Source of the DNA: Chara braunii
Taxonomy: Eukaryota; Plantae; Charophyceae
DNA: 64,000 nt
NCBI GenBank assembly: GCA_003427395.1
Contig: BFEA01000006.1
Coordinates: 7,919,382-7,983,381 of the forward strand
Reading direction: 5' to 3'
Under the pieces are notes generated by a model that worked only from the letters and a program-made list of their open reading frames with translations, did no database searches and was not told the origin of the DNA. This document shows positions 2,606-28,518 of this stretch, piece after piece; within the stretch, counting starts at the first letter, position 1, and each line of letters opens with the position of its first letter. The position numbers and the translations under genes are program-made.

Positions 2606-4039
2606 CTGAGCGCCTCCAGCTCATCCTTTCCACCCTCTCCTGGGCACGCAGCTGCTGGTCACACTGGCGCGTCGCCCCTTGAGGTCCCTCAACAGGACCT
2701 CCCTCAAGGCCTTGTCCCTCCTCGCGGTGTCCTTTCCGCTCAGGAGCGCGCGGCCATTTTGGGCCGGCGTGGGTTATTGCGCTGCCGCCAATACAGTCAT
2801 ACCTCTTTGCGGTACCCTTACACCGCCGCCTTTGACTGCCATTACGTTGACGTTTCCCGCCAGCGTCGTGCTTAGTCCACCCCGGCGCCTCACATCCCCG
2901 CAGCGCCTCTTAGCCACGGTGCAGTATACACCTGCGCCATCCTCAGTAGTCGGCTTCCCGACATCCCCATCAGGGTTTACCCCTCTCGCTACTAGAGTTG
3001 AGGTATCGCAGGACTCGACAGAGTGCACTCAGCCCTCTGTCCCAGTACTGTATGCGCCTCCGCAGACCATTGTCTCCCCTCCTACCCTGCCGCAACTACC
3101 GACGTGTCGAGCCATTAGCTCAGCCCGTTGCAGCGAGCAGCTTGCGACTAGTGAGGAAGTTGTGTCCTCTCTTCTGGACTTGAGCATGCTCCAGGCTCGT
3201 CAGGAGCGACTCACCCTCCATGTCGCTGCACTGGGTCGCCTTCTCACCATCCTCTCTGACTCTGATCGCACCCTCCCGATCATTCCAGTGTCGGGTCTCC
3301 CTTTATCTCTACCTCCTGTAACTGCAGCCGAGCCGAGGCCCGCCCGGTTCGGGCGCCCCCTTCCCTCGAGGGAGTTCCCTTTTTGGAAAGAGCCTGCCCC
3401 CCTATCTAACAGGACCACTTCCGGGAGCGTTGCTGATAATCCCTACCCGCTCTCGCCGACTTACCCTCCCCAAGGCTCCTACCTCCCTCTACTTTCACAC
3501 GTGCGGGGTTAGAGCCCAGTGCTTGATCGGTCAATTTACAGCTTCCCCCCCCCTCCGCTTGGCAGCTCATGTTTAATGCCACCGGTCGCACCATCTGCGC
3601 AGCGGGAGTGATCTTTCCATTTGGCCAGAAGCTCAGCCCTCCAGGGGTCCCACAATGTCAGTCCACATCTCGGAAATGAAGTTCGTGGAGTTTTTCGCTC
3701 GGCACCAAGACCAGATTCCGGAACGCCCCCAGATAATGATCGAACCGGCCTCTCAACCCGAACTTCAGTCGCGAACTGAACCCATGCACGAGAAGACTTC
3801 AGCTCGACCCAGAGACCAGAGTTCAGAAAGCCCCGGCATGACGATAGCCCAGCGTACCGAACTTGACCCCAGACACGAAAGAAACCAAAAACACGAAGGG
3901 ATTTCACTTTCGTCGCAAGGACCAGAAGCACAGACAGACCAACATTACGAGTTGCAAATGCGCTCAGAACAATGGAAGACAGGTATAGACATTCAAAAAG
4001 AGAAAACCGGATTTCGCACACACTCTTGTCCCCGACATC

Positions 4040-4042
<3 letters not shown>

Positions 4043-4130
<88 letters not shown>

Positions 4131-4360
4131 NNNNNNNNNNNNNNNNNNNNNNNNNNNNNNNNNNNNNNNNNNNNNNNNNNNNNNNNNNNNNNNNNNNNNN
4201 NNNNNNNNNNNNNNNNNNNNNNNNNNNNNNNNNNNNNNNNNNNNNNNNNNNNNNNNNNNNNNNNNNNNNNNNNNNNNNNNNNNNNNNNNNNNNNNNNNNN
4301 NNNNNNNNNNNNNNNNNNNNNNNNNNNNNNNNNNNNNNNNNNNNNNNNNNNNNNNNNNNN

Positions 4361-4448
<88 letters not shown>
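4043..4448. repeat. (CT)n microsatellite spanning an assembly gap
   Basis: CT run on both sides of N block 4131-4360. Confidence 0.95.
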
Positions 4449-4450
<2 letters not shown>

Positions 4451-4760
4451 TATAGCTCGAGTCCAAGCACACGCTCGGAGTGATGAGAGCCGCAAAGAGT
4501 GAGACCGTTGTGCGCTTCCAGGTAGGAAACGCCTGCGACACTAGCAACAATCAGCCGAAAACGAGTAGCCACTGCCTGTGCCCGGAGAGCTTTGCACGAC
4601 CTAGCGCGGGGCCATGCAAGTTTGGAGCACAATTCCTCGGTCGTAGTGCGAACCGAAGCTCTCATGAACGCAATGGACAAGAACTGGTTCATAAAGAGCA
4701 GCAACATAAATCAAGATTCTATGAGCTCGACGAGAGGCCAAGTAGGCAGCGCGTCGCGAG

Positions 4761-5085
4761 TAGCTCGCAACTAGCTCCGATGAACCCGACGAGCGGCCGA
4801 TCACTCGGCCTGCAACCAGTAGCGCAGCTCGTGGTAGGCAAGCTCGCGGTCAGCATAGATGAACACGACACGCGACCGATCACATGGCCTGCAGCCCGTA
4901 GCAAAGCACGTGTCAAGTAAGCTCGCGGTCAGCATAGATGCACACAACTAGCGACCGATCACATGGCCTGCAGCCCGTAACGTAGCACGTGGCAAGTAAG
5001 CTCGCGGCGAGCACCGATGTACACAACGAGCGGCCGGTCACTTGGCCTGCAGCCGGTACGCGCAGCACGTGTCAAGTAAGCGCTC
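4761..5085. repeat. ~80 bp tandem repeat inside LTR
   Basis: Units starting AGCTCGC at ~4761, 4841, 4920 and 4999 (AGCTCGCGGTCAGCATAGATG...CACATGGCCTGCAGCC...GCACGTGTCAAGTA); also present at ~21650-21880. Confidence 0.85.
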
Positions 5086-8000
5086 GTCCTTCTTCCGTGC
5101 ACGCCCTCCCTGGAGAAGCAGAGGGACTCCAACGTCTCGCTCAAACGTGACCCTTGCCTCGCTAGACATGCAGATCTCAGCGCCTCCGCGTGCGCTCCCT
5201 CTCCGCATACGAGACGACCGCCCTCTGGTTTCCTCGCTCTCCTTCTCTCCCGGTCTCCCTCTCTCTCTTTCTTTCTCTCTCGTCTCTCTCTTCTCTAGTT
5301 GGCGCCTCTCAGACCGACTTGAAACTTGCCTTTACTACTGCAAAAAATGTAGAGACAGTACTCAGGCTTTCACCCATGCGTGACCCCCTTCGCGAGCGAG
5401 CTAGTCCTATCTCTGCCTCCCTCCCTCTCTCTAGACGAGCACACGCCTAGCGAGGGCTGAAAGCTCTCCTGGTTGTAGTCGCTACCGACCTGGCCGTCCC
5501 GGGCGGTTGACTTTATCGAGCGCCTTCCTCGTCGCGCGTGGGGCTTCCTGATCGCATCTTGCGCAGAGGTCAAAAAGGAGTCTGGCCGAGCATTTCTCTC
5601 CCATGTGCTTCCGCATTCTCCCTTCCCGACACCCTGCACCGGGAATCCCGTACTAGCCGGGTGCACCTCCCTACCCGCTATGGCTCTCTCTCTCTACGTC
5701 GAGCGCAGCTCTCCGCGGCAAGCTGCGTGCGCGGAATGCTGGTCCTAGCGTACGCTTAGTGCGAGCCCCTCCTCTCGCGCGCCGTCCCTTTTTCGTCGCT
5801 TCTCTCCTTTATATATACTTCCTCTCGTGATGTCTCCCATTCTCGGTTGGCATTTTGTCGCGCAGGGCGACAATTCTAAATTTCCCCAAAAAAATTTTCT
5901 TCCCGCTTCCTCTTCACCTCTACCCTGCTTCTTTCCCTTCGATCCTTTCTGACTCCGCCCCCCCTCCAATCAAGTTCCTTCCTTCTGTTGCCGCGCGGAT
6001 CGACTCATGCTGCGCGCAGCCTTGGTTGCTCAAAAAAAAAAAAGTCCTTCCCGCCCCCTCCTCGCTTTTCCCTCTTTTGTTTTCCATCGATCCAATCGAG
6101 TTCTCTCCTTTCATCGCCACGCGGATCGACTCCAGTCGTGCGCGACTTTCCCTCCAGGCCTAAACAGTTACAGCGAGCACGATCCCATTTCCCGCCGGAG
6201 TGTCTGTTCGTTTCCCGCGCTGTGCTACTTTGAGCTCGGAGGACCCATCTGACCAAGAAGCTCTTGCTATCTTCAGCCCCGTTGGCAGTTACCAAGATCC
6301 ACTGAGCGCGCCTCCCGCTCCTTCTTCGTTCTTCAACCGGTTCCCTCTAGCTGTCTTTCTTTTGGGCTTTCCTCAGGCGGTTAAGCCTACTTCCCCTGCC
6401 AGTCTCCATCCTCACATGATAGACCCCTCATCTTTTTAGGGGGCCCGCCTCTGTACTCACCACGTGGGTCCCCCCCCTTCTTCAACCGCTTTCCCCGCTT
6501 CCTCAGCCTCTTGCCAAGGAGCTGCACCCCGAGTGATGCCGCATCACCCCTCTCCTACCCGCATTTTGTCGCAAATACTCCGACATTCGTTTGACCGTTC
6601 TTAGGATTCGTACAGCTGCCGTGCGCGTCGAATCGCTTCCCCTCCCCGCTCCTTGGGATCGGATTTTCTCTAGCACCTGACACCTTGCTGATCCGTAGGC
6701 NTCCTTCCCAATGTTGTATACCACCTCCTCCTTTTGAACTAATCGCTCCCTTTCCTTTGCTGAAAGTGGAAGCGTTTATCGGAATTTCTTGATCAAGCAG
6801 TCGGTCATCGCAGCACCCCTCACCCCTTATCTGCCTTTAGCACCCGTAGGTTGAGCATAGCCGAGTCGCGTCGATCTGCTGCGTCCGTCGCGGCGGTTTA
6901 AACTTCATCCACCCAGCCCAGCTGGCCCGCGACTATGATTTCAACCGTTGCTCGGGTCCATCGAGACTGTAGCATGAACACCTGAAAGCTCGGGTTTTCC
7001 CACAAACCACTCATTCACGCGCGCACATTACATCAGATCCACTTAAAAGGGAAGGGCACAAAATTCATCCTTTCCAGCTGGTAGATAGCCGCACCATTCT
7101 CTTTCACACCGTGACACTCATACGAAGTCCTGATCCGTCATCCACACGTCATATCCCTTTTACCCACTAAAATAGGTCTTAGGCTGCCGACCCTGAAACC
7201 ACTATTTTTCTGGAATCCGGTCCACCCTCACCTTGTAAGTTAGACATCGTGCGCTTGCCACGTCGGGATGGTACCAGCCGTACCGCTCGACGAAGGCTGA
7301 GGCGTCTCACCCGACCTTCCGGTACCATAGCCCAAGCTGGGTGCAAGCAAAGCCCACCACGTCCCCCCGCGGTAGTTCGGTGGTCATTAGCAACCGAGGT
7401 CTAGGGCCTTCACCGGCCCTCCGCTTTAGGTCCGACCAAGGCCCACTCCGAAGTACATCCTTTGCCCCGTGTCTTCAGACTTTGATACCGAAAATATGAT
7501 CTTCAATGATCCTCCCGAGCCCGCTTGCGACCAAGTTTTGGATCCTCAGTTCAGCCAACCGAAGGATTAGTATGAAGAGCCAGACGCCCGAGGACATCCA
7601 CAAATGCCATATCCACCTGCACTCATTCGTCAAAACCAAGCAAAAACTGCAAAAAAAGATAAAAAAAATGTTTCTCATCTCAAAGCAAAAACCTTCGGCT
7701 GTTAGACAGCCGCCCGGCAACCAGCCCACACCCCGATTCTCGCTGTCCCTGGTGAGTCCTTTTCATGAGCCCTTTCTTTTAACCGTTTCCCCAACGTTTA
7801 TTCGTGAAATGTTTCTCTTGTTTCATCCCATTTTCCCGATTAGTTTTACTCGTTTTAATACCATCGTCTTGTCATGACGCCATTCACGACTCACGGCACA
7901 TTCTTACCCTAGGACACCGGTCTATGGTACGACTCATCACCCCTCACAACACCCGATTCTCTAACTATGGTACATTATGGAATGATTTTCCCTTCGACAG

Positions 8001-8376: not shown

Positions 8377-9984
8377 TCAGAAGATTTTGAGACGAGCCCC
8401 TGCGATAGGGTCTCGCAGCCTACTCCCATCTAATTCCGCGAGCATATAAGCCCCCCCGTCCAATCTCTTTAGGACCTTATACGGCCCCATCCATCGGTTC
8501 GCCAATTTTCGGCTCCAGGTCTTTTCTAGTGACGAATGGTACATTAGTACTAGGTCGTTAACCCCTATCGGCGCCTTTCGAACCCGCAAGTTTTTGTCCC
8601 ACATATCCTTTCCTTTCACTCTTTCTCTCCCGACATTCTCTCCTGCCTCGGTTAGCCCGGCATCCAAGTTCTCGGCTATTTGCTGTATCCGTGCCTCCAA
8701 CAGTTCGTCCCTTGTCATGTTAGTTTTCCACGAGACACTTGTCCAAGTATCAACGTGGAATTCGATGGGTAGGGGACAATGCCTACCGAACCAAAGGGTG
8801 TAAGAAGGGTACCCCGTACTGGATTTGACCGTGATATTATCGGCCCAAACCGCATACCGCAAATACTTCGGCCACTGTTCCGGGCGACCTTTTCACCATT
8901 TCGCTAGAGCGTCCACAAGCGTCTGGTGACCCCTTTCTACCAGTGCATTGCTTTGGGGGTGATACGCGGTCGTATAGGCTGCCTCTATTCCCGCCTTTTT
9001 CAATAACCCCTTTACCTTTTGGCTCAAAAACTCAGCGCCCCTATCCATGACTATTCTCCCGATGCACCCATACCGCGCGATATACTCCATGAGAAAATCA
9101 CTCACCTCTTCCGCCGTCTTCTTCTTAATAGCCTTTGCTTCTACGAACCCAGTGAGGTCATCTCGGGTGTTGATTATATACCGAAGCCCGCCGACCCCTT
9201 TCGGCATGGTCACTAAATCCACATGGACCTTCTCGCCCGGAACCGTGGGAAGCGACAGAACTAAGGGTTCTTTGTATCGAACCGTCACCCTCTTCTGGCA
9301 AGCCTCATAGGTTGAACAGTACTTTTCCACTTCCGTGTATTGCCCGTCCCACCAATAAAGCCTACGGACCTTATCGAAAGTACCCTTCAACCCCCTGTGA
9401 CCTCCAACGACCCCATCGTGTAACTCCTCTACGACAGCCTTTCTCTCCTCGGGATCGCACAGCACCCTCATGGGTATTGCAAACTTGGTGGGCCTTTTGA
9501 AGAGATGGCCTCCCCGCAGGCAATACCCCAACGCCTCTTGCTGTATTCTTTCAGTCCCTGTTTCCCTACCGGCCAAGTACAGTCCTATGTCTCGGTACTT
9601 CCCGTCGTAGAGATTCGCGAGAAAAGTCCTTGGCCCCCCTTCTTCTCTCGTGTTGTTCTCCGCCACTCGTGCTCTATTAGCGGCGACTTTCATCACCTCC
9701 TCTCCGGCCATTGTCACCGCTTCCTCCTTGAGTCTAGGAAGGTCCTTCTCACGAATGGGAAGCCGGGACAATCCGTCCGCGACCTGGTTCTTGGCCCCCG
9801 ATATCCTCTCGACCCTATAGTCGTAAAGCCTACTATGAATCATCCACCGTGCGATGGTCGGATCTGTCAGGGAGAAATCTTTTTGGAGGACAGCGATCAC
9901 TACTGTCGAGTCCACCCTTAGAAGAAATCGTCGTCCGTATAGGTAGTGACGGAAGGTCTTTAGGCAGTGCAGTACCCTTAACAC
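8377..9984 (-). pseudogene. pol: RNase H C-terminus plus integrase (zinc finger, rve core, GPY/F), with internal stops
   Basis: ELHDGVVGGHRG...YC..YEACQ (degenerate HHCC), VHVDLV, IVMDRGAEF, YHPQSNALVERGH, WMGPYKV. No chromodomain. Confidence 0.9.
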
Positions 9985-9996
9985 CTCTTTTTTGAA

Positions 9997-11445
9997 TTAG
10001 CTATAATTTCTCTCGGCGGGGTTTAAGGTCCGGCTTTCGAATCGCAAAGGTCTCTCTTTCCCTTCCTCGTCCTTCTGAGACAGGAGGCCCCCCACCGAGT
10101 GAGGTCCCGCGTCCGTGGAAACTATAAAGGGGCGATGCCCCTCGTCTTCAAAGAAAGGAACTCCAAGGACCTCTCCACCTTCACGGAACTCTCCCTTTAA
10201 GGCTTCCATGGCCGCGGCTTGTTCTTCTCCCCAAGCCCATCCTTCCGATTTCGTGAGGAGTCTTCTCGGGGGTTCTGCTTTCTCTCCATAGGCTTTTATG
10301 AAGATTCTCCAGTAGCCTACAACCCTCAGAAACTCTCGGACCTCTGTTATGGATTTGAGCGGTGAAGGCCAAATCATAAACTTTACTAATTTCTCGGGAT
10401 CGACCCTCTGCCCCTCCTTATCGCAAATGAACCCTAGTATCTTGATGGAGGATACGCCCCAACGACTCTTAGTCCCGCTTACCGTGAGGTTGGCATTGTC
10501 TAGTTTCTCAAGGACGTCCCTGACATTTTTCATGTGGTCGGCCACAAATTTTCTAACCCCCGGGAAAACCTCAGTCTCATTCCGCTCGACCGGCCTTTTT
10601 ATCGGGAAGTCATCCAGGAAGACCTCCACCTTCTCCGGTATGAACTCTTTGAGGACCGCGATCATGGCCCTTTGGAACACTGCTACCCCATTCGTCCAAC
10701 CCATCGGCACTACTATCATTTGAACCAGCCCGAAAGGTGTATGCATGGCGGTCATGTGCCTGTCCCGGTAATCGAAGGGGATTTCGCCATACCCCGAGAA
10801 GAGGTTGCAGATAGAATATATTGAGCGACCCGCCGATCCTTCTGCTAGCATGTCGGCCTCAGGTATAGACCCCACGTCTGTAATGGTGACTGCATTGGTC
10901 CTCTGGAGGTTTTGGATCCATCTTAGTTTGTTGCTTCCCCCCTTCCTCAGAAAGAACCACTTATTGGAGTAGGCACTCTCGCAAGGTTCCGCGACGAATG
11001 TCCTGATCTTTTCCTTGATGAAGGCAACTATCTCCTCTGTCTCCTTTTGAGCGTACTTCCACTGGGCCCTATCCTTCCAAGGGACGTGCGGGACCGTGTG
11101 GATCCAGGCCGGCTTAGCATACCTTGGGTCGATTCTCTCTCTCTCCGAATCATCAAAGGCAATGGCTTTATCGCAGCCCCTTAAGGTCATGGCTATGAGC
11201 TCTTTCTCTCTCTCCGTGAGATTCCCATCTCCGATATCCATTTTGGCCAATCTATCGGTCATTATCCTTTGGCCTTTAGTCTCTTTCCTCTCCTTGATGA
11301 TATCGGCGATCTCCTCCTCCGATATCGTAGCTTCCCCCGTTCTATCCCGGCTAACCGCGGCGGGCTTTACTTTATCCGCCACGGTTTTGTGCTTCTTAAC
11401 TCCGCCGGCTAGGGGGATCCCTCCAAAAAAGACATACTCACGCAC
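9997..11445 (-). pseudogene. pol: Reverse transcriptase / RNase H
   Basis: YSNKWFFLRK..LRWIQNL, PMGWTNG, VFLDDFPI, STDAGPHSVGGLL, PLRFESRTL. Confidence 0.92.
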
Positions 11446-13650
11446 CCACCGAACTCCTCCTCCTTGTTCTTCTTCTCGTATCCCATACCATTAATTACAA
11501 TCATATCCCCCACGCCCTCGACCTCCAATTGGTCCCCCTTGGGTCCCCTATCCGTCAAGGGTACCTCCTCTAGACGGACTCGACACACCCTCGACTGGCT
11601 CCCCTTGCGTCTAGCAAGGCTGGTCCGGTTACGTTCATCTTGTGCGTCTATGGTCTTTAGGACCACTCGAATTCCATCAGGACTTTGGATCGAGAGGGTT
11701 CGACTCCCAACTGGCAAATCAACTGTGGTTGCGTGTACCACGCTCAACCAGGTCCTCCCGAGGATCAATTCGGCGGAGCATTCTTTTACCGAAAAGATCG
11801 GAACCGTGGCCTCTACATCAACTACCTCAATCACGGGGCTATGACACACCCGTTCCGCCGGTTGCATCTTGTTGTCGGCCACTACCATCGACATTGACAC
11901 CCCTCGATCTATCTCCAAGCCTAGCTCTCATGCGATGGAGTCTCTGCATACCGTAGACTCGGACCCATTGTCTACTAGAACCCTCATCTTCTTCCCACTT
12001 ACCACCGCCTGGAGCTGGCCGCTACCTAACACGTAGAATTTTTTGGCCTCTTCTCCTGAGAAGAAGTTGGCGGGTAGTTCCTCCAGGGTAATGTGGGAGG
12101 CCTGTACTTCTTTCTTGGCTGGGCCTTCCACTGGCACCGTGGGTCCCCCAACGATCGGGACTCTAACCTTCCTTGTGATGCTTAGGAGCTCCTCCCTGGC
12201 GCTTTTGCTTGCGGCTAGATATTCCAAGAGTGTGCACTGCATAGGCTGCATCTGGGTTCTCCTGACGGGTGCTACCGTGTCTATCTCATCCAGAGTGCAC
12301 TTCATTTTTAACTTTTTGGGCCCCCTTTTCTTAGGCGATTTGGGCAAGGTGGGATCCTCCTTCTTTTCCTCCACCGTTTTCGCATCAGTCATTGGCTGGT
12401 CATTGTCGCCGCTTTTTACTTCCGTGCTTTCCGTCACACTTGCTTGGTTCTCGGATGTCTCGGCCCCGACCTGCGTCCTCACCCCTAGGCAGGGCCTCTC
12501 TTCTTCGGGCTGGGTATCTAATAATTTGATGCTTGATACTTGGGGTTCCCTAATGGACAACCCTCCCGGTGACTCCACCATTTGGATGTGATTTGTGTTG
12601 GAGGAGCTTCCGACTTCTGGTTTCTTTCCCAGTCTAGCCTCCTCAAGGGTCACCCTCTTGTCCACGTTCACGTTCATTGATGGGTAAAAGGAGACCGCCT
12701 CTCCGCTGTTTCCCCATACAACCCACTTGTTCTCATTTAGCTTGACCATTCCCAATCTCAAAGCCTCCGTGAGATAAGGGCAGTTCCGCTTGATGTGATT
12801 TTCTTCATTGCAGTAGACACACCCGGCCCGAGCTTGGGGATTGTTGGGGCGCGGACCCCCTTGTGCTCTTGGCGCTACAGGCGTAGGCGAAGCCGGCGGC
12901 TGTGGTGCCCTAACCTCCTGTTGCGGTCCAGGGGCCCTTGCTGGAGGGGCGTCTCCCCACCTTCCATCTCTAGCATCCTTCCAATGGGAGCTCCCCCAAT
13001 CGGGACCACGATTCCCCCCTATCTCTCGGTCGTTCCTCCAACCTCCCTGGCCACTCGATTCGTTCGTCCATCTGGTCGGCCGTTCTCCCCACCGGGGAGC
13101 AGGCGGTCCTGGGGGCGGTCTATCGCTCCCTCTTGGACCATCGTTCCATGCGCCTTGCATGTAGCGGAGCGCCATGTCTAAGGTCTCTTTCATGTACTCC
13201 CTCACATCTACTACTCCCCCCCCGTGAAAACCACTTCGACGGCTCTTTCGAAATAGGCAGAATCCCTCGGGGCCTTTTCAAGGACTTCTTTCCTTTTCTC
13301 TTCCGGTAGGTGTAGCATAAACATCACGCACCTATCTACTTCAGACAGCATTCCCCTATCTACTAGGGTCTGGGACAGGCGTTTGAACCTTCGGGTGAAG
13401 GCCACCAAGCTCTCCCGATCCCCCCTCGTAATTTGTCGCAAACCTTCTACGGTAGGGATCAGATCATCACAGGCGAACGTCTGCAACGGGCTCGTTCTAA
13501 AGGTTCTCCATCGTCCATCCGCCGGGTGGATAGCCCGGATCGGGGAATCTAACTCGGGGTCCGAGTTCTGAATGAAATAGTCAATCCACTCTCTTTCGGA
13601 AAATCTCTTCCGGTAGCCATAACTTTCTCATTTTTCCACGAACCCCGTCA
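11409..13650 (-). pseudogene. gag: Gag (capsid, CCHC zinc knuckle) and aspartic protease, broken into several ORFs
   Basis: CVYCNEENHIKRNC zinc knuckle; LVDNGSE protease active site; ELILGRTWL; capsid-like LRQ...ESLVAFTRRFKRL. Confidence 0.88.
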
Positions 13651-14733
13651 CATCACGTCCGTCGAAGAAAAGTGCCTCCAGACCCAAGTTGACGTCGTAG
13701 TAGGGGACTCGTAGGTCATCGTAACGACGAAAATAGGGACCCTCCATCGGCCCATCGATCGCCGGATCGTACGGCTTGTAGCACGAGGGATCAGGCTCCT
13801 CCATCCGGCCTCGAGGTCTTGGCGGTTCCCAGGGGTCCTCCCCATAGCGCCCCCGCTCATCCGGCCAATCTGCCTCCCACCGAGCGAGGTCCTGCCCTCT
13901 AAAGCTTCTCTAGGCCTCCACCCCCTGACTCTTGCCCGTTATCTCGTCGGGAGCCCAGGAGGCGTCCGCTTCCCTTACGACCCATCTCCGCGGCCTACTA
14001 CCAGCCTCCGCTGGCCTCTCGTCTCTAAGGCCCCTTCTACTCGGTCCCTCTTCCTCTTCTCTCCGGGGTGGCCGGTACCCCCCCTATCTCGTGGGAATTC
14101 TAGAGCTTCTCCCACTCTTGCGTCCGGTAAATCCACCCACCGAGACTCTACAGGAAGGCCCCTTGACCCCTCGATCGCCCCTTCTCGCGCAGGCATCCGC
14201 ATCTCCACACCAGATCTAGACCCTTCTAAGGCCTGCCTCTCGCTGGCGACAGTCTCCGGGACCCTTTCGACCAATCTCCGTGGCCTGCCGCCGGCTTCAG
14301 CCGCCCTCCCTTCTCTTAAGTCCCTCCTGTCTTGACACTCCTCTTCCTCTCTCCTAAGTGGTCGATACCCTTGTCTATCTCTAGGGAACTCCCGCGCTTC
14401 CTCTAACCTTGCTTCCGCATCCATTAGGTCCACCCACCGGGATTCCACCGGAACGCCTCTCGCGGCCTCGGTGACCCCCTCGTTCACCGGCACCCGCGGC
14501 CCCACATCCCTGCGCACTCGCACTTCCGTGCCAGCCCTTTGCCCCTCCGAGGCTTGTCTTTCCCCCGAAGCCATTTCCGAACCCCCTTCGGTCCTAGCCA
14601 GCGCCGCCGCCCCCCCTGTCATTTCCTCCACTACCCTACTTAGAGTGGCCCCCAACTCGGGACTGTTCACTATCCCCCTTCTGTCAGTGGTTTCCGGCGG
14701 ACTAGAGAGACCAGCCTCCAGTTCACTCTCCAT
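13650..14733 (-). pseudogene. Arg/Glu/Gly-rich repetitive ORF immediately upstream of gag
   Basis: ORF 13975-14733 with internal repeat RG(V/L)PVESRWVDL...EFPRDR; same strand as gag. Confidence 0.5.
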
Positions 14734-14753
14734 GCACCCTTATTGGCAATATC

Positions 14754-15631
14754 TAGTCGCTTCCGTCACTATCGTCCGCGTTACCTTCTGGCTCGTCCCT
14801 CTCACTACTCTCTGCATTATCTTCTGAGCTCTCTTCCTCCTCCGATCTCCCCTTCTCTTCACTAGAGTCCTCGTTAGCACTTTCTCTTCCCGACTCCTTG
14901 CTGGTTACTGTTCACCAGGAATCTCTCAGTTTCTTCTCCTCGCTAGCAGCGAATGCAAGATTCGCAATTTCTAGGTCCGAGATGCCCCTAACCCCCTCTT
15001 GCGCACACCTCCTAATCAAGTCCCTATCCACATCACTTGGCTGCCCGGAGAATAGAGGTTTGATGAACTCCCCAACGCGTGCCCACCACTCGAAGTCGGT
15101 GTCCTCTCTCGACTCCCAGCACTGGGTGAATAACTCGTGGCCTCCTTCACCTAGAGGGAATTTTTCTATTACTTGACCCCTCAATCGGACTCTCTGCAAG
15201 GTCTCCTCGTCAGCATAGAGTAGTTGATAGGCCCAGGTGGGGAGGGTCCACGTTCTCCCGCGGGCTGCCCTTGGGATTTCCGTCCTTCCTCGGTACTCTA
15301 CTTTATCAATCACGAGGTCCCCGGAGCCAACTCTTCTCAATCTATGCACTCGCTCTAGGGCTCTTTCAACGATGCCCAGAGAATCTTTCCCTTCTACTAA
15401 TTCAGTTGTGAAAATTAGTCGGGCGTCAGGGGACAAAAATATTTCCGCCTTTCTCGTGCAACTCCTCCCCACCGAAAACCTGACCACTGTCTCCTGCTCG
15501 TAAATTTCGAAGAACTCGATAGTCACCTCTCCTTCCCCTCTAACTTTCGGGAGAGTCACTCCATATTTTCCTCCGCATGTCCAAACCCTTTCTATGGTGC
15601 CATAAGGGTCCCCCCTTTCGTATCTGATCAT
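14754..15631 (-). pseudogene. Accessory ORF, divergent family A member with acidic tail
   Basis: RFSVG...AEIFLS and HELFTQCW motifs; after TGA at 14912 the frame continues in an S/E/D-rich tail to TAG at ~14754. Confidence 0.6.
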
Positions 15632-15638
15632 AGGAGCT

Positions 15639-16115
15639 TCACCTCACATCTGCCAACCTCGTGGCGGCCTCGACCAACGAGTTCTCGCACTTCGCACGAC
15701 CAGTCCCTTCGTCCTCTCCCAGAGTTTGACGCAAAGCCTCTTCGTATTCTCCCGTTCTATCCCAAAATTGGGTCTCCACGAGGTGCGTCCTAGATGCCAG
15801 TGGCGTTCCTAGATACCTAGAGTCCTCCTCAAATTTTCTCTCTACTTCCAACAAAGGCTCCCTCCAAGTCCTCGAGAATCTTACGCCACTAGCGTCCCTA
15901 ATGTGGACTGAAAAGGTAGTTAGTGTGGTCCAGCCCCTTCTTTTCCACAAGGCCAGGCGGCAAACCTCTACTAGAAACTCCTTCTCGGCGCGGACTACCC
16001 GGTCCTCTCCCAATTCAGGGTTAAGCTTTGCACCCGCTTCGAACCTAACTTCGCTACCGTCCTCGTAGGTCTCTAATTCCCAACGGATCCTATTGGAAAC
16101 AAACGAAGCTCTCAT
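15639..16115 (-). CDS. Accessory ORF of unknown function (158 aa), possibly distant family A
   Basis: ATG start 4 nt after the upstream TGA; HLVETQFWDR resembles HELFTQCWES. Confidence 0.5.
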   Translation of the reverse strand: MRASFVSNRIRWELETYEDGSEVRFEAGAKLNPELGEDRVVRAEKEFLVEVCRLALWKRRGWTTLTTFSVHIRDASGVRFSRTWREPLLEVERKFEEDSRYLGTPLASRTHLVETQFWDRTGEYEEALRQTLGEDEGTGRAKCENSLVEAATRLADVR

Positions 16116-16119
16116 CCCC

Positions 16120-16308
16120 TCACTGCGCGAGAAGATCTATCGTTACCTCGTCTAGGATAGCGATCGCAGCTGTCTCAAGTAGCTTGATCCTGGCTAAGGA
16201 CCCGGGCCTTGCCCTCCTTTCTTCTTCCCAGCATAGAACAAGGATCCGCTGAACCTCTTCCCTTACTCTATCCAACTCCTCAAACTCCTTAAGGTCTGGC
16301 TCGGTCAT
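16120..16308 (-). CDS. Small helical accessory ORF (62 aa)
   Basis: ATG 3 nt after an upstream TAG; its TGA is 4 nt before the next ATG. Confidence 0.45.
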   Translation of the reverse strand: MTEPDLKEFEELDRVREEVQRILVLCWEEERRARPGSLARIKLLETAAIAILDEVTIDLLAQ

Positions 16309-16311
16309 CCC

Positions 16312-17033
16312 CTAACCTCCGTCGACGACACGCAATTGCTATCCGAATTAAGTCTGAGGGGTCTAACCCCGCTAGCTCTCCCTCGCAGATCTTACCTAAG
16401 TACCTCCACAATATCTTAGACTCCTCGCGTGTCGACCCCACCCTTCAAATGCGTAACACAGGTCCTCTAGGGTCGACCAATCGTCTCTATAGGGGTCCCG
16501 AAAACACCAAGTTAACAAGGTGTGAAGGTCCGATCCCGTGAACCTGAATTGACATAGGATGGAAACCCTTCTTTCTACCGCCTTCTTAACATCCTCAGAG
16601 GGGTAAACCCGCTCGAAAATAAAACGGGGGACTTCCACCGGCTCGCCGGTATTTCTTCCCAACCCCCGTAGGTCACTAGATATTTCTCGTCGCATCCTTC
16701 GTGAGGTCTCAACTCCTCTACTAACCCCCCTAACCGGCCTCTCACGGCTCGAGCGTCCCAGAGAGGGTCTTGTCCAATCCGTAAGCTACGTGCTATCTCA
16801 ACAAGCCCTTCCTTCTAGAGGAATATTCGGGCTTCTCCAACTACAACCTTCCACTGGCGACTCACCGCAAATCGTATGAACGCCTTACCGCGCCGGATCT
16901 CCCCTTCTTCTCGCAAGAGGGTCCTAGTTGGCTCAATCAATTGGGCCCTAGGCAGAGTGATACTGACGACCTCCCCGGTATCCTCTACGGGCTCTACGGA
17001 TGCCCAGAGAGTTCTCGGGATCCCTCTTATCAT
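16312..17033 (-). pseudogene. Accessory ORF family A, copy 4
   Basis: AFIRFAVS...EARIFL*KEG and LHTLLTWCFRDP; starts at an ATGA overlap; contains stops and a frameshift. Confidence 0.6.
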
Positions 17034-17730
17034 CGGCCCTCGAAACCCCGCCGGTTAGACACCTGCTTTTCCCCGAAGAGGCGGGCATACGGAACGTCCG
17101 CGACGAGGGATCGGAGACCCTCAAATTCTCTCAATCTCCCGAATATGGCGGGTAGCTCACTCCTTGGGGGAACTCCCGCGTCCACACACCGAGTATAAAG
17201 CCAGAACAAACCCCTAGCCCGCACCCCGGATTCTGGAGCTGCCCTAAGCAGTGCTACCACCCTCTCCTCCGGGTCTCTTAGGAACGAACTGGCCACGAAC
17301 AAGGGCAGGTTAGCGTGGAGGACCCCGGAAGCGCGAGGGACCTCTCCAGGCTCGGCGAAGAAAACTAGCGACCACGAATCGAAAGTCCCTTCCTCGTAGT
17401 CAGCTTACACCAGGTTGTTTGCCAACAGCCTTGCGGATTCTTGGTATTCAAAATGAGTAAGTTGTCCGGTCACTAAACCTCTCCATACTTCGGTCCACAC
17501 CTCTTCGTTGAGAAAAATTGTAGCCCGAACCTCCAAGAAACGACCCAGGTCGGGCGGACCTCCTCTTTCCACACCCTCCTTCCAAGTGAGCCTTCGAGCT
17601 CGAACCCACACATAGCCCCTTCTCTGATCAATCCCCCTTTCTCAACGCTCATCCAATAAAGAGTCACTTGAGGATCCCCCGGAACTAAAACCTTCTCGGC
17701 GTCACTGGCCTCTATCTACCCGACCACCCC
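17030..17730 (-). pseudogene. Accessory ORF family A, copy 3
   Basis: 17405-17611 and 17030-17302 are in the same frame across one TAA; LGRFLEVRATIFLNEEVW and LFWLYTRCVDAGVPPR. Confidence 0.7.
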
Positions 17731-17734
17731 GTTT

Positions 17735-18345
17735 TCACTGAGTATGAACTTCACCATCTGCTATCATCGTCCTAAAGACCCACCTGCGATATTTTTCAGG
17801 AGAGAGAGTGAAGGGTCTTTCTAGAGATCCTACTCTCTGGAAAATACCCCAGAGTTTCCTGCGCGGCGGAATACCCTGATCGATGCAGTGCGTATACAGT
17901 ATCCACAGGTCCCTGAAGGTAAGACCCAAACTCCTACCCCTCTCTAGAAGAAACACTATTTTTCCCTCGTTAGCTCTAGGAAAAAGGTAAGACGACACCC
18001 TCACAGTTAACGGATAACTTGACCTTGCAAGCTCTCTCGCCCCCGCGAACCTCTCCCTTTCCACAGGCACGAAGGCAAATCGCTCTTTAACCCTACTACA
18101 AGTTTCGCCCAAGCCTCCGGAGCTACAAAAATAACCGTGGTTATTTCAAGACTCCGCCCAAGACCTTGGTCTTCTACTTCTTTGGACTCCACCCACACGA
18201 ATCCCCCACTATTCGTGGACCTTCCCCCTTCTATCCTTTCCCAATCCGAGACTTCCCCGTTGCTAGGGACCAGCCTAAGCGTCGCACGGTCCTCTAAAGA
18301 AGACTCTAAGAAGCACCCCTACTTTCTATCATGGAACACCATTCA
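17735..18345 (-). pseudogene. Accessory ORF family A, copy 2
   Basis: LGRSLEITTVIFVAPEAW (18007-18198 frame) then, after a frameshift, LWILYTHCIDQGIPPR (17735-18112). Confidence 0.7.
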
Positions 18346-18346
18346 T

Positions 18347-19090
18347 TTAGAAGATTCTTTGTGGCACCCCAAAGACTCTTTGGTATCCATAGTCCCTACC
18401 TCCCTCGTGGTCCCGGGTAGACTCCCTAAAGATCCCTGCACGAATCATACATGCCTTGATCCCGTATGGTACCGGGTTATCCACGCAATAGGTGTAGTAC
18501 CAATGGAGAGACCTAACAGATAGCTGCCACCCCCTCTCTCTCACTAGGGACCGCACAACCCTATCGTATCGCTCCTCTTTCCCGCTCACCCTTCGAAAAA
18601 CGAATGATGGAAAAATGGCGCTGACGCACCTTGTGGCGCGGGGGTACTCTTCATCTCGCGCGCAAGTCACCCTTACCTCAATGGGCGGGCAGTGTCTACG
18701 GGGGTCTGTCTCAAAGATCTGCCTCAAAATCGGACCTGCTCGTGCCTCCCAATGATCCGCACGGTACCACCCCAGGACCAAATGTGTGACGTTATCAACC
18801 CAGACCTCCTTACTCAAATAAATAGTTCCTTCCGCATGGATCACTGTTCGTCTGGGTCTCTTCCCGTTCAGGGGTCTATTTCGGGACCACCTATCCCTCT
18901 CCCAAGTTCCTACTGCGAAACGAGCCCAAAGAAAAACTCCTCGTTCTAGCTCTAACCCTTTCTCGCGGCCGGTTAGATACCTCTCCGTGCGGTGGTCTAA
19001 GGGGACGCTGAAGCACTCTTTGTCTTTGCTTAAGTCCGCCTTCTCTATCCGAACCCCTTATTCCTTAGTACCCTCTATGATCCTAACCAT
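18347..19090 (-). pseudogene. Accessory ORF family A, copy 1
   Basis: ATG at 19090 is in frame with 18347-18844 across one TAA; LWARFAVG...AEGTIYLSKEVW and LHWYYTYCVDNPVP. Confidence 0.7.
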
Positions 19091-19447
19091 CCCCTTGGAC
19101 TATCTCCTCTATGATTTGAACCAGAGCTCTCCACTCGTCCGACCCGTCTAGGAAGGCGTCCGGAATAGTGGGGACCGGCTTACCGCCTCGTGGATACGTT
19201 CTACACCCCAACGAGTAGAAGTAGTTAATCTCATAAGCCCCCAGCAGTTGCCTCTCGAGCTGCGCGTGACCGATCGCTTCCTCCCAACTATCCAAATATC
19301 CCGCCTCCCTATCAACACTCTCTTCTACGTACAAGGCTATGTCGAAGTGTTCGGTCCACCAGTAAAGGTATAGCACCACACATCTACCCCGCCTATATCA
19401 CCCACACTAATTCCCGCGGGTTCAAACTCCAAAGGCCTCAAGTTCAT
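19083..19447 (-). pseudogene. Accessory ORF family B, copy 2 (one frameshift)
   Basis: ATG at 19447 gives ISVGDIGGVDVWCYTF; the shifted frame gives YVEE...YFYSLGCRTYPRGGKPVPTIPDAFLDGSDEW. Confidence 0.75.
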
Positions 19448-19803
19448 GGATTCGCCGCTCTCACTATACGCTCCACAATCCCCACTAGTACTTTCCATTC
19501 ATCTGATCCATCGAGATAAGCGTCCGGAATTACCGGTGCCGGACGACCACCTCTGGGGTAGGTTTGATATCCTAGAGAGTAGAAATACTTGTACCCATAA
19601 CCCCTTAACTCCTCACGAGAACCGCGGGAATGGCCTGTCGCCTCTTCCCACCCACAAAGGAAGTCCTCTCCTTGATCTTGTACCTCCTCTACATAGACAC
19701 CTACATCAAAGTCCCCCGTCCATAGTCGAAAGGAGTAACACCACACGTCTACACCTCCGTACGTACACACACTAATCCATTCTGGAACGGCTTCTAGGCT
19801 CAT
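19444..19803 (-). CDS. Accessory ORF family B, copy 1 (119 aa, intact)
   Basis: ISVCTYGGVDVWCYSF...YVEE...YFYSLGYQTYPRGGRPAPVIPDAYLDGSDEW; clear paralogue of the adjacent ORF. Confidence 0.75.
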   Translation of the reverse strand: MSLEAVPEWISVCTYGGVDVWCYSFRLWTGDFDVGVYVEEVQDQGEDFLCGWEEATGHSRGSREELRGYGYKYFYSLGYQTYPRGGRPAPVIPDAYLDGSDEWKVLVGIVERIVRAANP

Positions 19804-21384
19804 GCAGTATAATCAAAGGAAAATTCCCTAAGTTCCTATTTCCTTTTGGTCACTCAAAAGACCACCTCTATTCCGAAAGGAGAAGAAGCCTGTGAGCTCA
19901 TAAGGATCAAATGGACCAGAGAAGGAACACTGTCTCACTCGGCTACCTTCCTGTCCTCCCCCGCTGAGAGACCCTTCCCCACTCCCGGCCTAGAGACTAG
20001 TCGCAGACACAGGTTATCCCTAAGGAAGGGTGGCAACCCCCTCCCCGGAGTCGGACCGAAGTCACACACCCGGGTCCTATGTCCCCCACTGAACCGACCT
20101 TTAGTCCTAAGTTAGCCTATCCGGCACCACGCCTCTACTCGGCCAACCTCAAGCGTTGAATTACCCGGGTCCTAGGACAAGATCCACCTATGTATCAGAA
20201 ATCACTAGCCTATCTACTCCCTCCCCATTCTCCCCATTGTGAACTCTTCGCACTTCGTTCCCTTCTTTCTTTTCCGCCTCCTGCTGCCTCTTTTCTCTCT
20301 TGGAATCGCTGGAAAATCGGGAAGTTAAACAAAAATGGGGTGGGAAGAGCGGAGCTTTAGGAAGAGGCTATCAGGTTAGATTGAAAAGTATACGTACCTT
20401 GAGTCTTCAATATTCGTTATCATAGTCCCAATAGTCCCCCAGTTCCGAGTCCGAGAAATCGGCTAGACACCAGTCCACCCAGGACTCGGTCTCCGATCCC
20501 TCGTCCAAGGTCCCCCAAGTACCCCCTTCTTGTCTAATGCCCTCGCTAAGACGGGGAAGCGTGTCTCTCTCTCCCCCTCGCCCCGGTACCCGTAACACCA
20601 CTCTCCTCTCCCCCAAGTCCCGAACAGGTCCCGTTTGAGAGTCCTGCTCCCTTGTGGGAGTTGGAACCGTCGTCAGCCCTCGCGGGTCGAGAACAGAGGC
20701 CCCTAACCTCTCTCTAGACACCCTCTCTCGTGCGGGACTTTGCCCCCGGGCAGGTACCCTCCACAACCCGTGAGGATCAAGAATACTCAGTGACCCCCTC
20801 GGATCCCAAATAGACAGCGCCCCCGGACCCTCTCGGACCCCTCTCTCCTCTATCTCTCTCCCCCTCTCTCTTTCTTCCCCTCGAGCAGACCCCCCTACAC
20901 TATTTTCCCGGACTGTTCTTCTTCCTCCCCTTTCGTTGTTCTTCACCCTCATTCAGACCCTTCAAGCAAACTGTGCTCCCCCTAGTTTTGTAAATTCTTA
21001 GAAACAAACAAGCCCAAAAACCAAGCACACACAATGAAGAGGAACTGACCTGGTTTACCCCTCGACGGTCGGAAGTGGGAGTCGAGATCGCAAGCGGGCC
21101 GGAGTGGACCTGCAAGAAAAACAAGGAGACAAGTCCCAATACCCGAAGCCCCTCGCACGCGACAAGCCCAACAACAGCCCTTTACCCCAATGAAACCCTC
21201 GCCGATGCCGCTTGAGAAGAATTGCGTAGACCCTGACGAAGACCACCTTGAAGCCGCGTGTCGAAGGACTTGATGCCGGAAAAAATTGTAGAATATCCCC
21301 GACTCTCACTACCGCTGCCTGTCACGCCAGTCCTCCCCGTATACCGAGTCCTTTGAGCCGGCCGCGGCTGAGGGAGAAGTGCTC

Positions 21385-21403
21385 ATCCCCGGCAACGGCG
21401 CCA
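21385..21403 (-). promoter_or_regulatory. Primer binding site, tRNA-Asp(GTC)
   Basis: Minus strand TGGCGCCGTTGCCGGGGAT, 3 nt inside the 5' LTR; complementary to the plant tRNA-Asp 3' end and the PBS type known from Athila elements. Confidence 0.88.
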
Positions 21404-21406
21404 CTT

Positions 21407-24400
21407 TGTCGGGTCTCCCTTTATCTCTACCTCTTGTAACTGCAGCCGAGCCGAGGTCCGCCCGGTTCGGGCGCCCCCTTCCTCGAGGGAGTTCCCTTTT
21501 TGGAAAGAGCCTGCCCCCCTATCTAACAGGACCGCTTCCGGGAGCGTTGCTGATAACCCCTACCCGCTCTCGCCAACTTACCCTCCCCAAGGCTCCTACC
21601 TCCCTCTACTTTCACACGTGCGGGGTTAGAGCCCAGTGCTTGATCGGTCAGCATAGATGAACACGACAGGCGTCCGATCACATGGTCTGCAGCCCGTAGC
21701 GAAGCACATGTCAAGTAAGCTCGTGGTCAGCATAGATGCACACGACCAGCGGCCGATCACATGGCCTGCAGCCCATAACGTAGCACGTGGCAAGTAAGCT
21801 TGCGGCCGACACCGATGAACACAACGAGCGGCCGGTCACTTGGCCTGCAGCCAGTAGCGCAGCACGTGTCAAGTAAGCGCCCGTCCTTCTTTCGTGAACG
21901 CCCTCTCTGGGGAAGCCGAGGGACTCCAATGTCTCGCTCGAGCGCGACCCTCGCCTCTCTAGACACACAGATCTCAGCGCCTCCGCGCGCGCTTCCTCTC
22001 CGCATACGAAACGACCGCCCTCTGGTTTCCTTGCTCTCCTTCTCTCCCGCTCTCCCTCTCTCTCTTTCTTTCTCTCTCGTCTCTCTCTTCTCTAGTTGGC
22101 GCCTCTCAGATCGACTCGAAACTTGTGTTTACTACTGCACAAAATGCAGAGACAGTACTCGGGCTTTCACCCGTGCGTGGCCCCCTTCGCAAGCGAGCTA
22201 GTCCTATCTCTGCCTCCCTCCCTCTCTTTGGACGAGCACACGCCTAGCGAGAGTTGAAAGCTCTCCTGGTTGTAGTCGCTACCGACCTGCCCGGCCCGGG
22301 CGGTCGACTTTATCGTGCGCCTTCCTCGTCGCGCGTGGGGTTCCTTGATGGGCCGAAGGCATCTTGCGCAGAGGTCAAAAAGGAGTCTGGCCAAACGTTT
22401 CTCTTCCATGTGCTTCCGCATTCTCCCTTCTCGACACCCTGCACCGGGAATCCCGTAGTAGCCGCGGCGCACGCCCCCACCCGCTATGGCTCTCTCTCTC
22501 TCTACGTCGAGCGCAGCTCTTCGCGGCTAGCTGGGTGCTCGGAATGCTGGTCCTAGCGTACGCTTAGTGCGAGCCCCTCCTCTCGCACGCCGTCCCTTTT
22601 TCGTCACTTCTCTCCTTTATATATACTTCCTCTCGTGATGTCTCCCATTCTCGGTTTGCATTTCGTCGAGCAGGGCGACAATTCTAAATTTCCCTCAAAA
22701 ATCTTTCTTCCCGCTTCCTCTTCACCTCTACCCTGCTTCTTTCCCTTCGATCCTTTCTGACTCCGCCCCCCCTCCAATCAAGTTCCTTCCTTCTATTGCC
22801 ACGCGGATCGACTCATGCTGCGCGCGGCCTTAGTTGCTAAAAAAAAAAGAAGTCCTTCCCGCCCCCTCCGCGCTTTTCCTCCTTTTGTTTTCCATCGATC
22901 CAATCGAGTTCTCTCCTTTCATCGCCGCGCGGATCGACTCCAGTCGTGCGCGACTTTCCCTCCAGGCCTAAACAGTTACAGCGAACACGATCCCGTTTCC
23001 CGCCGGAGTGTCTGTTCGTTTCCCGCGCCGTGCTACTTTGAGCCCGGAGGACCCATCTGACCAAGAAGCTCTCGCTATCTTCAGCCCCGTTGGCAGTTAC
23101 CAAGATCCACTGAGCGCGCCTCCCCCTCCTTCTTTGTTCTTCAACCGGTTCCCTCTAGCTGTGTTTCTTTTGGTTTTCCTCAGGTGGTTAAGCCTACTTC
23201 CCCCGCCAGTCTCCATCCTCACACGATAGACCCCTCATCTTTTTAGGGGGCCCGCCCCTGTACTCACCACGTGGGTCCCCCCCCTTCTTCAACCGCTTTC
23301 CCCGCTTCCTCAACCTCTTGCCAAGGAGCAGCACCCCGAGTGATGCCGCATCACCCCCCTCCTACCCGCATTTTGTTGCAGATACTCCGGCATTCGCTTG
23401 ACCGTTCTTAGGATTCGTACAGCTGCCGTGCGCGTCGAATCGCTTCCCCTCCCCGCTCCTTGGGATCGGATTTTCTCTAGCACCTGACACCTTGCTGATC
23501 CGTAGGCCTCCTTCCCAATGTCGTATACTACCTCCTCCTTTTGAACTAATCGCTCCCTTTCCTTTGCTGAAAGTGGAAGCGTTTATCGGAATAGCTTGAT
23601 CAAGCAGTCGGTCATCGCAGCACCCCTCGCCCCTTATCTGCCTTTAGCACCCGTAGGTTTAGCACAACTGAGTCGCGTCGATCTGCTGCGCCCGTCACGG
23701 CGGTTTAAACTTCATCCACCCAGCCTAGCTGGCCCACGACTATGATTTTAACCGTTGCTCGGGTCCATCGAGACTCTAGCATGAACACCCGAAAGCTCGG
23801 GTTTTCCCACAAACCACTCATTCATGCGCGCACATTACATCAGATCCACTTAAAAGGGAAGGGCACAAAATTCATCCTTTCCAGCTGGTAGATAGCCGCA
23901 CCATTCTCTTTCACACTGTGACACTCATACGAAGTCCAGATCCGTCGTTTGCACGTCATATCCCTTTTACCCACCAAAAGAGGTCTCAGGCTGCCGACCT
24001 TGAAACCACTATTTTTTTAGGAATCCGGTCCACCCTCACCTTGTAAGTTAGACATCGTGCGCTTGCCACATCGGGATGGTACCGGCCGTACCGCTCGACG
24101 AAGGCTTAGGCATCTTACCCGACCTTCCGGTACCATAGCCCAAGCAGGGTGCAAGCAAAGCCCGCTACGTCCCCCCACGGTAGTTCGGTGGTCATTAGCA
24201 ACCGAGGTCTAGGGTCTTCACTGACCCTCCGCTTTAGGTCGGACCAAGGCCCACTCCGAAGTACATCCTTCGCCTCGTATCTCCAGACTTTGACACCGAA
24301 AATCCGATCTTCAATGATCCTCCCGAGCCCGCTTGCGACCAAGTTTTGGATCCTCAGTTCAGCCAACCGAAGGATTAGTATGAAGACCCGGACGCCCGAG

Positions 24401-24526
24401 GACATCCACAAATGCCATATCCACCTGCACTCATTCGTCAAAACCAAGCAAAAACTGCAAAAAAAGAAAAAAAAATGTTTCTCATCTCAAAGCAAAAACC
24501 TTTGGCTTTTAGACAGCCGCCCGACA
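21407..24526 (-). repeat. 5' LTR of nested element (3120 bp)
   Basis: TGTCGGG...CCCGACA termini; adjacent to PBS; colinear with 3289-7719. Confidence 0.93.
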
Positions 24527-27500: not shown

Positions 27501-27600
27501 CTCCACTGGACAGCTACAAGTCCGGGCAGTAGCGAAGTTTTATGACCAGGCAGCCGCCGGTCATAAGGGCTTCCACAAGACGTTGACTCGTATGAGCCGC
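24527..27600 (+). pseudogene. pol: Chromovirus pol: protease, RT, RNase H (interrupted by MITE)
   Basis: ALWDSGSRGDFI; [20 protein letters not shown]; MPFGLTNTPATFQ; VYLDDIVVYS; TTDASDFAVGAVL; WRHYLHG. Confidence 0.9.
25256..25774. mobile_element. AT-rich MITE-like insertion in pol
   Basis: Abrupt AT-rich block with 11 bp TIR AACAGAAAAAT...ATTTTTCTGTT and internal TGGAATGA repeats; flanks rejoin as ...[14 protein letters not shown]. No clear TSD. Confidence 0.75.
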
Positions 27601-27619
27601 CTATACGAAGCGCAAGGAC

Positions 27620-28510: not shown

Positions 28511-28518
28511 GCAAGGAC

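Follow-up and report, generated by a model that had tools for sequence, protein, structure and literature searches.

An array of accessory open reading frames depleted of internal ATG precedes gag in a Ty3/gypsy retrotransposon of Chara braunii

A stretch of 64,000 nt from the charophyte alga Chara braunii (contig BFEA01000006.1, positions 7,919,382 to 7,983,381 of the forward strand; the window in the following) contains a Ty3/gypsy element of ~21 kb on the minus strand, bordered by long terminal repeats (LTRs). LTR retrotransposons are usually taken to consist of gag and pol, with no more than one or two additional open reading frames (ORFs). Here, nine ORFs in element sense (minus strand) fill positions 19803-14753, between a site resembling a primer binding site (PBS) and gag's ATG at 14733. 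This cassette is conserved between element copies and strongly depleted of internal ATG. We consider it probable, at roughly 0.65, that the accessory genes and gag are translated from a shared RNA by ribosomes scanning past weak starts through AUG-cleared coding regions. The ORFs are, in the order of the element:

20407..20952, minus strand: ORF0, 181 aa, acidic C-terminus, no internal Met, between PBS-like site and B1
19444..19803, minus strand: B1, 119 aa, intact
19083..19447, minus strand: B2, ~120 aa, one frameshift near 19364
18347..19090, minus strand: A1, 247 codons, one nonsense codon near the start
17735..18342, minus strand: A2, ~200 aa, one nonsense codon and one frameshift with a short deletion
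17030..17757, minus strand: A3, ~240 codons from an inferred start, one frameshift near 17614 and two nonsense codons
16289..17033, minus strand: A4, ~245 codons, one nonsense codon and two frameshifts
16120..16308, minus strand: C1, 62 aa, intact
15639..16115, minus strand: C2, 158 aa, intact
14753..15631, minus strand: D, 292 codons, acidic tail, one nonsense codon at 14912-14914

Internal ATG in frame occurs three times in 1678 cassette codons compared to 49 times in 2035 codons of gag-pol (Fisher p = 3e-10), and one of the three (17767) is private to the window copy. The isoleucine codons ATA, ATC and ATT are as common in the cassette as in gag-pol (77 versus 76), therefore ATG alone is avoided. 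In-frame ATG is likewise rare in sister copies, for which the evidence consists of three short loci (two of them independent), three gene models and read tables. L003 spans A4-C1-C2-D, L002 spans C2-D and the gag start, L001 spans D and gag. Together these loci show no in-frame ATG in 1045 codons, L002 included, the synonymous sites of which are saturated versus the window and which is yet cleared. In the sister gene model P0005, Met accounts for 1 of 409 cassette residues versus 20 of 795 residues of gag and protease. ORF0 has no internal Met in 181 residues; it is probably a tenth accessory gene of the cassette, as judged from the window sequence.

Off-frame ATG is reduced as well, with 32 observed versus 47.3 expected from synonymous reshuffling (1 of 1000 reshuffled sets as low), and 12 versus 22.9 in the sisters (0 of 1000 as low). 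In gag-pol 55 are observed and 55.7 expected. Per kb this amounts to 8.3 ATG in the cassette, 3.7 in the leader, 15-20 in gag-pol and 13.8 in the LTR. ATG on the antisense strand is at expectation, and both the in-frame and the off-frame reduction end at the gag start. The start contexts are mostly weak or moderate: A at -3 is found at none of 11 starts, a purine at -3 plus G at +4 at one of 11. Additional ATGs in strong context (n = 8) all open frames of no more than 15 codons, shorter than those of the other 30 (one-sided p = 0.026). As far as sequence can tell, this is the leaky-scanning signature of tungro- and badnaviruses, extending however over 5-6 kb and not 0.9 kb.

The precedent is rice tungro bacilliform virus (RTBV), where ribosomes scan ~900 nt across two internal-AUG-free ORFs to reach the polyprotein of capsid and reverse transcriptase (RT) (PMC5902531). 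ORFs I and II of RTBV and badnaviruses lack internal AUG and are scanned; in RTBV a stronger upstream start cuts the downstream product, and a short upstream ORF (uORF) added in ORF II left ORF III translation unlowered (PMC5902531). The Chara element shares with these viruses the accessory ORFs upstream of capsid and RT, abutting or fused stop to start and cleared of AUG, as well as the non-optimal start contexts and the tolerance of short uORFs (PMC5902531, PMC3542737). It differs by holding nine or ten ORFs over 5-6 kb instead of two over ~0.9 kb, and by LTRs and integrase, no movement-protein match and no detected shunt hairpin. Moreover, leaky scanning was experimentally shown in RTBV, whereas for the Chara element we infer it.

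Applied to the cassette, each start codon would capture a share of the scanning subunits while the rest moves on. Ribosomes starting at an in-frame AUG would be lost for good, as the frame it opens is long; an off-frame AUG would open a short frame, after which scanning can resume. This difference in cost would explain why the cut is ~12-fold in frame and ~1.5- to 2-fold off frame. Termination-reinitiation at the stop-start overlaps may contribute. D, the last gene, is cleared too, so that the RNA from which gag is read likely still contains D. The clearing of D persists even in the diverged L002, and hence gag, as the only candidate downstream, likely depends on ribosomes crossing D.

The tight packing of about nine same-strand ORFs between PBS and gag, proposed in the original prediction, is confirmed. 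Junctions are gaps or overlaps of 4-23 nt: 4-nt overlaps at B1/B2 (the B2 start lies on the B1 stop, ATGA) and A3/A4 (ATGA), overlaps of 8 nt at B2/A1 (ATGnnTAG), 23 nt at A2/A3 and 20 nt at A4/C1, and gaps of 4 nt at A1/A2 and C1/C2 and of 7 nt at C2/D. The spacing of A4/C1 and C1/C2 is identical in L003, that of C2/D differs by one base in the sister loci, and the 19-nt gap from the D stop to the gag start is identical in L001. Stop-free stretches of at least 100 codons cover 78% of 14734-19803; in 100 dinucleotide shuffles the mean is 7% and the maximum 29%. The antisense strand of this region reaches 58%, as is usual opposite coding DNA. Chosen cassette frames show 6 stops in 1678 codons, compared to 126 and 104 for the two remaining sense frames, a count which is no independent test since the frames were picked by eye along the ORFs. 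To the operon-like arrangement of the original prediction, the clearing of internal ATG adds a putative mechanism.

The same junctions could also point to ribosomes that translate each ORF and restart at the next, either by termination-reinitiation or with an element-encoded transactivator like TAV of cauliflower mosaic virus; AUG clearing would then merely guard against false restarts. All cassette junctions are within 23 nt, and ATGA (twice) and ATGnnTAG match the coupled-reinitiation forms of victoriviruses and caliciviruses (PMC3542737). Fused stop-start codons however occur across Caulimoviridae and are therefore not discriminating, and pure coupling gives no clear reason for clearing AUG along whole ORFs, in frame more than off frame. 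AUG-free ORFs are tied to leaky scanning and not to TAV in PMC5902531, and Pfam scans of the cassette proteins yielded no TAV-like match. We thus regard restarting as the sole principle as rather improbable.

The ratio of nonsynonymous to synonymous substitutions (dN/dS) was determined against the sister loci. Versus L001/L003 it is 0.17-0.19 for D, 0.10 for C2, 0.09 for C1, 0.12 and 0.22 for two pieces of A4 and 0.17 for the gag N-terminus. Versus L002, C2 gives 0.17, and D shows a dN of 0.31 at saturated dS. For B1 and B2 we used variant counts covering 40 of 51 listed differences. Where the variant share is below 90%, 17 of 23 differences are synonymous (33% expected, p = 7e-5); among the near-fixed ones, mostly private to the window copy, it is 9 of 17 (p = 0.07). 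B1 and B2 show identities of 0.69, 0.67 and 0.34 at the three codon positions. An excess of pS over pN between aligned paralogs is biased by the protein-guided alignment, as unrelated pairs (C2/D) show it likewise, and that measure was therefore kept for B1/B2 only. Selection evidence for A1 and A3 is at the paralog level. These values indicate that the cassette genes are under purifying selection as strong as that on the gag N-terminus (dN/dS 0.09-0.22 where measurable, not near 1), and the accessory block can be taken as real.

This bears on the idea of captured foreign DNA, be it viral, from a bacterial operon or from host genes, which is carried passively and owes its low Met content to inheritance or composition. 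The operon-like packing would fit, and a 6-base Shine-Dalgarno-like word is present at 2 of 11 starts. However, 386 of 2000 random sets score as high, so that such matches do not exceed chance, and only Chara gene models provided real relatives, with none in viral contigs (searched: 1.84 billion representatives; viral contigs). Above all, purifying selection continues between element copies, which largely refutes passive carriage; we give it hardly any credence.

The window copy is partly decayed, as had been proposed, its cassette being broken by 6 nonsense codons and 5 frameshifts. Of these 11 breaks, the eight that were checked (all but the A1 stop and the two A3 stops) are each missing in one or more sister sequences. 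The nonsense codon of D at 14912-14914 is lacking in P0001, P0005, L001 and L002. The A4 stop and both A4 frameshifts are absent from sister sequence, as are the A2 stop and frameshift, and P0005 runs unbroken from the same Met as A2. The A3 frameshift near 17614 is missing in part of the sister depth, the B2 frameshift near 19364 in many sister contigs and in 6 of 9 RNA reads. L002 in turn carries two private stops in its D.

The cassette is found in sister copies in the same order, both in the loci and in P0005 (A2, C2, D tail, gag, protease). P0003 contains A2, P0001 contains D. In the DNA run X1 the median summed contig depth of the cassette equals that of gag (800 versus 802; pol 1596), and pieces identical to the window reach a depth of 4-7. 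This points to an order of a hundred copies, depth itself being no copy number. Judged by these data, the block is family-wide and conserved, and neither decay noise nor a separate inserted element. None of the outcomes named beforehand as contrary to the original prediction was observed. P0003, P0005 and P0001 are the Chara 'hypothetical protein' models CBR_g40479, g39819 and g27985; they are likely annotation chimeras stitched wholly or partly from sister cassette ORFs.

Two further observations concern the depth profile. In the non-coding stretch 19602-20515 the summed DNA contig depth is higher than in the cassette by a factor of two to three; other families or deletion derivatives may share this part, e.g. 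as a packaging signal. In X1, X2 and X4, contigs of depth 9-15 connect 19116 to 19505 with 24 other letters in between. The net skip is close to the B1-B2 offset and may represent a variant with a single B gene.

The original prediction of nine ORFs is right in number, but these are not nine unrelated genes, and a tenth ORF lies upstream. B1 and B2 are paralogs (57% identity across 88 aa). A1, A2 and A3 aligned mutually at profile probabilities of 87-98%, A4 is linked to A1 at z 6.1, and the two halves of D are linked to A4 at z 10.8 and 4.2, a level reached by 0 of 300 shuffles. This pairwise evidence is better than that of the profiles, which tie A4 and D to A1-A3 only weakly (hhalign 1-23%). 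B, C1, C2 and ORF0 showed no homology to the A family (best B1/A2 with z 3.6; profile probabilities of ~1% or less). Five of the nine genes (A1-A4 and D) hence appear to derive from one ancestor and two (B1 and B2) from another, and the block was, by this comparison, built mostly by tandem duplication.

No recognisable domain was found, in agreement with the original prediction. In Pfam no family reached the cut-off for the cassette proteins (best E 0.069), NCBIfam gave no family at E 0.1 for any of 10 proteins, and the best E in a PDB profile search was 0.4. A word-based protein search with A1 confirmed 0 of 428 candidates (range 129-413 aa). Among 1.84 billion representatives two of three matches are real relatives, both Chara gene models; the third, P0004, was rejected as a tandem-repeat artefact. 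In viral contigs 0 of 34 pattern matches were confirmed as cassette relatives. The ESM Atlas led from A1 to integrase-core look-alikes (0.82-0.85) and from D to unnamed clusters (0.83-0.84), all below the lead level of 0.9. An integrase-like nature of A1 was dropped, as Pfam, PDB sequence and fold searches gave no backing. AlphaFold2 models of A1 and D were poor (pLDDT 46.6 and 48.5). With these models, both below pLDDT 50, Foldseek gave no match at E 0.001 in the viral and PDB sets and the VIA fold comparison reached Z 5.9 and 5.5 at best; the fold searches thus show neither a new fold nor the lack of a known one. No transmembrane stretch was found in the cassette proteins (maximal 19-residue hydropathy 1.5), therefore they are not env-like.

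The suggested analogy to anti-silencing VANC proteins gained no support, as no Pfam plant mobile domain matched and the A1 and D models are too poor for a fold test. Like VANC of the VANDAL DNA transposons, the cassette proteins are lineage-specific accessory transposon proteins (PMC13547354). In contrast to VANC, which is MAIN-like and dicot-specific (PMC13547354), they belong to a different transposon class and show no sequence match, the fold models being below pLDDT 50. A role as host-interaction or counter-defence factors is a guess from soluble, lineage-restricted, duplicated and diverged proteins, to which we give somewhat less than even odds. Movement or particle factors seem unlikely, and a translation transactivator among them a little more so.

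Several points weigh against the shared, scanned RNA. After ten starts, few ribosomes would be left for gag, normally needed in bulk, and in the best-known case scanning covers ~0.9 kb and gives three or four products (PMC3542737). In the window copy 38 non-start ATGs remain from PBS to gag, 8 of them in strong context, and only 2 of 10 non-start ATGs in B1/B2 were shown to be private (among the 40 of 51 listed differences). The starts of A1, A3, A4, B1 and B2 have the window copy as sole basis, and L001 and L003 overlap by 395 identical bases, so that they were counted as one copy. Scanning the leader in 20 windows of 300 nt revealed no shunt-type hairpin (z -1.3 at the lowest; 25 shuffles per window, longer hairpins and copy decay not covered). 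No test supports any function for the cassette proteins. RNA is scarce: mean depth over the cassette is 3.75 in run X6, X5 has next to nothing, X7 no reads on B1/B2, and at this low depth no read or contig of the RNA runs spans one shared transcript.

The X6 reads number 587 across 13.7 kb, 35 of them at least 99% identical. First mates on plus versus minus amount to 29.5 versus 11.8 in the cassette bins, which would mean sense orientation under the usual library convention; carry-over of DNA is possible. X5 contributes 33 reads, 31 of them partial.

The shortage of ribosomes for gag would be solved if the genes are real but expressed from nested spliced or internally started RNAs of two or three cistrons each, as in complex retroviruses, with an own RNA for gag. 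Scanning would then be limited to short stretches, and AUG clearing is still predicted in any ORF ahead of another. Ogre elements do regulate their polyprotein by splicing (PMC6317226). Every ORF is cleared from first to last, however, and the 60 nt preceding each of 11 starts contain no conspicuous pyrimidine-rich acceptor (T+C 0.33-0.52). No splice joint is listed in the RNA runs, the depth of which is too low for a test. Altogether we hold nested RNAs to be unlikely, though less so than restarting or captured DNA.

The strongest form of the scanning model is a single LTR-driven RNA from which ten accessory proteins and after them Gag are made, ribosomes scanning along 6-8 kb of AUG-cleared coding sequence, i.e. 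a eukaryotic operon inside a retrotransposon. We put this forward tentatively, as less likely than not. In such an operon the new, tandemly expanded protein family may itself license read-through or disarm host silencing.

Besides the cassette, the element is composed of:

21407..24526, minus strand: 5' LTR, ~3.1 kb, TG...CA ends
21387..21404, minus strand: PBS-like 18-mer, beginning with TGG two bases past the LTR end
11409..14733, minus strand: gag and protease, broken in the window copy, Met content normal
8377..11490, minus strand: pol with RT, RNase H, integrase and SH3-like end, disrupted by stops
3289..7719, minus strand: 3' LTR, 93.8% identical to the 5' LTR, split by other DNA at 3534-4846

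The LTR pair was found by self-comparison of the window (93.8% identity across 2885 nt, each ~3.1 kb). The Kimura two-parameter (K2P) distance between the LTRs is 0.060, and CpG sites differ by 13.6% versus 4.1% elsewhere. The 5' LTR has a single TATA-like box at 22625, from which the start site was inferred. The PBS-like 18-mer presumably matches plant tRNA-Asp; the 64-kb window contains no tRNA gene for comparison. Pfam matches follow one another along the element as Retrotrans_gag (weak, E 0.004), zf-CCHC (weak), RVT_1, RT_RNaseH, Integrase_H2C2 and rve, and a protease was detected in P0005. The order is thus gag, protease, RT, RNase H, integrase (gag-PR-RT-RH-INT), i.e. the gypsy order. 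In PDB, Ty3-G Gag-Pol tops 38 matches to pol (E 6e-51), above every retroviral RT, which is a ranking of matches only. With LTRs, domain order and best PDB match in accordance, the predicted Ty3/gypsy host element stands. The 27 RT relatives at E 1e-40 comprise 24 Chara braunii gene models, reaching 87% identity to the element RT, and 3 unnamed records. Other Chara subfamilies are 47-71% identical in RT. A chromodomain, the mark of the chromovirus lineage, was not found, only SH3_Tf2-1 following rve in the scanned frames (ending at 8380). Among the marker domains of the OTA superclade (Athila, Tat/Ogre/Retand), neither the Tat second RNase H nor PF10536, PF04195 or PF03078 matched in Pfam up to E 0.5-1. 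The RT motifs presumably resemble those of the Ylt1-like gypsy lineage. This lineage is known from fungi (PMC2864245). By its sequence the element is a member of Ty3/gypsy, with its lineage unplaced. Membership in Caulimoviridae was rejected on the grounds of LTRs and integrase; there is also no Pfam match to a movement protein.

The outer flanks of the LTRs, CCAG and CCAT, agree in 3 of 4 letters and form no clean target-site duplication. The element sits in another gypsy element (24412-29917, plus strand) just ahead of the protease motif of the latter, the frame of which continues in frame across the insertion site (flanks 3289 and 24526) without duplication. The interruption of the 3' LTR at 3534-4846 consists of 1.3 kb with a (CT)n run and an N gap, adjoining a 79-bp LTR tandem repeat. 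The gag N-terminal region (13972-14506) contains an internal repeat, 67% identical and 290 nt apart, which is also present in P0005. A second LTR element lies at 49099-64000 (repeats 95% identical, 13.1 kb apart). It has gag-like fragments at 58627-59799, no pol-sized ORF at a threshold of at least 110 aa and a long leader without comparable ORF tiling; it is perhaps non-autonomous.

Compared to other large retrotransposons, the element resembles Ogre, Athila and Retand in its long LTRs, total length of >20 kb and lack of a chromodomain (PMC6317226, PMC7264820, PMC6431247), as well as in extra ORFs without assigned function and a non-Met PBS-like site. Ogre however has 1-2 extra ORFs (PMC6431247) and the Chara element nine or ten; most described extra ORFs are located between pol and the 3' LTR (PMC7264820), whereas those of the Chara element precede gag. 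The excerpts of PMC6317226, PMC7264820 and PMC6431247 describe neither a paralogous array nor AUG clearing for Ogre, Athila or Retand. The REXdb survey counted only ORFs of at least 250 codons, by which most cassette ORFs would be missed. Planarian Burro is likewise an oversized gypsy element with large accessory coding capacity, but combines host-like domains in one huge polyprotein (PMC6431247) instead of many small ORFs without known domains. The literature covered contains no account of the Chara element or of a multi-ORF, AUG-cleared LTR-retrotransposon leader; the 2018 Chara genome paper was outside this scope and may describe such elements.

Taken together, nine or ten conserved 5' genes represent virus-like genome growth via gene duplication inside a retrotransposon, and the cassette explains some chimeric 'hypothetical' gene models of Chara. 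Met-free ORFs ahead of gag provide a simple signature for screening other genomes. If true, the one-RNA unit would be several times longer than any leaky-scanning unit we found described, and would be a natural test for how far eukaryotic ribosomes scan and how many cistrons one RNA serves. The AUG clearing suggests that an integrase-bearing element of a charophyte alga is translated in the manner of plant pararetroviruses. This shared strategy may reflect convergence, or be a remnant of the sort of element that such viruses drew upon.

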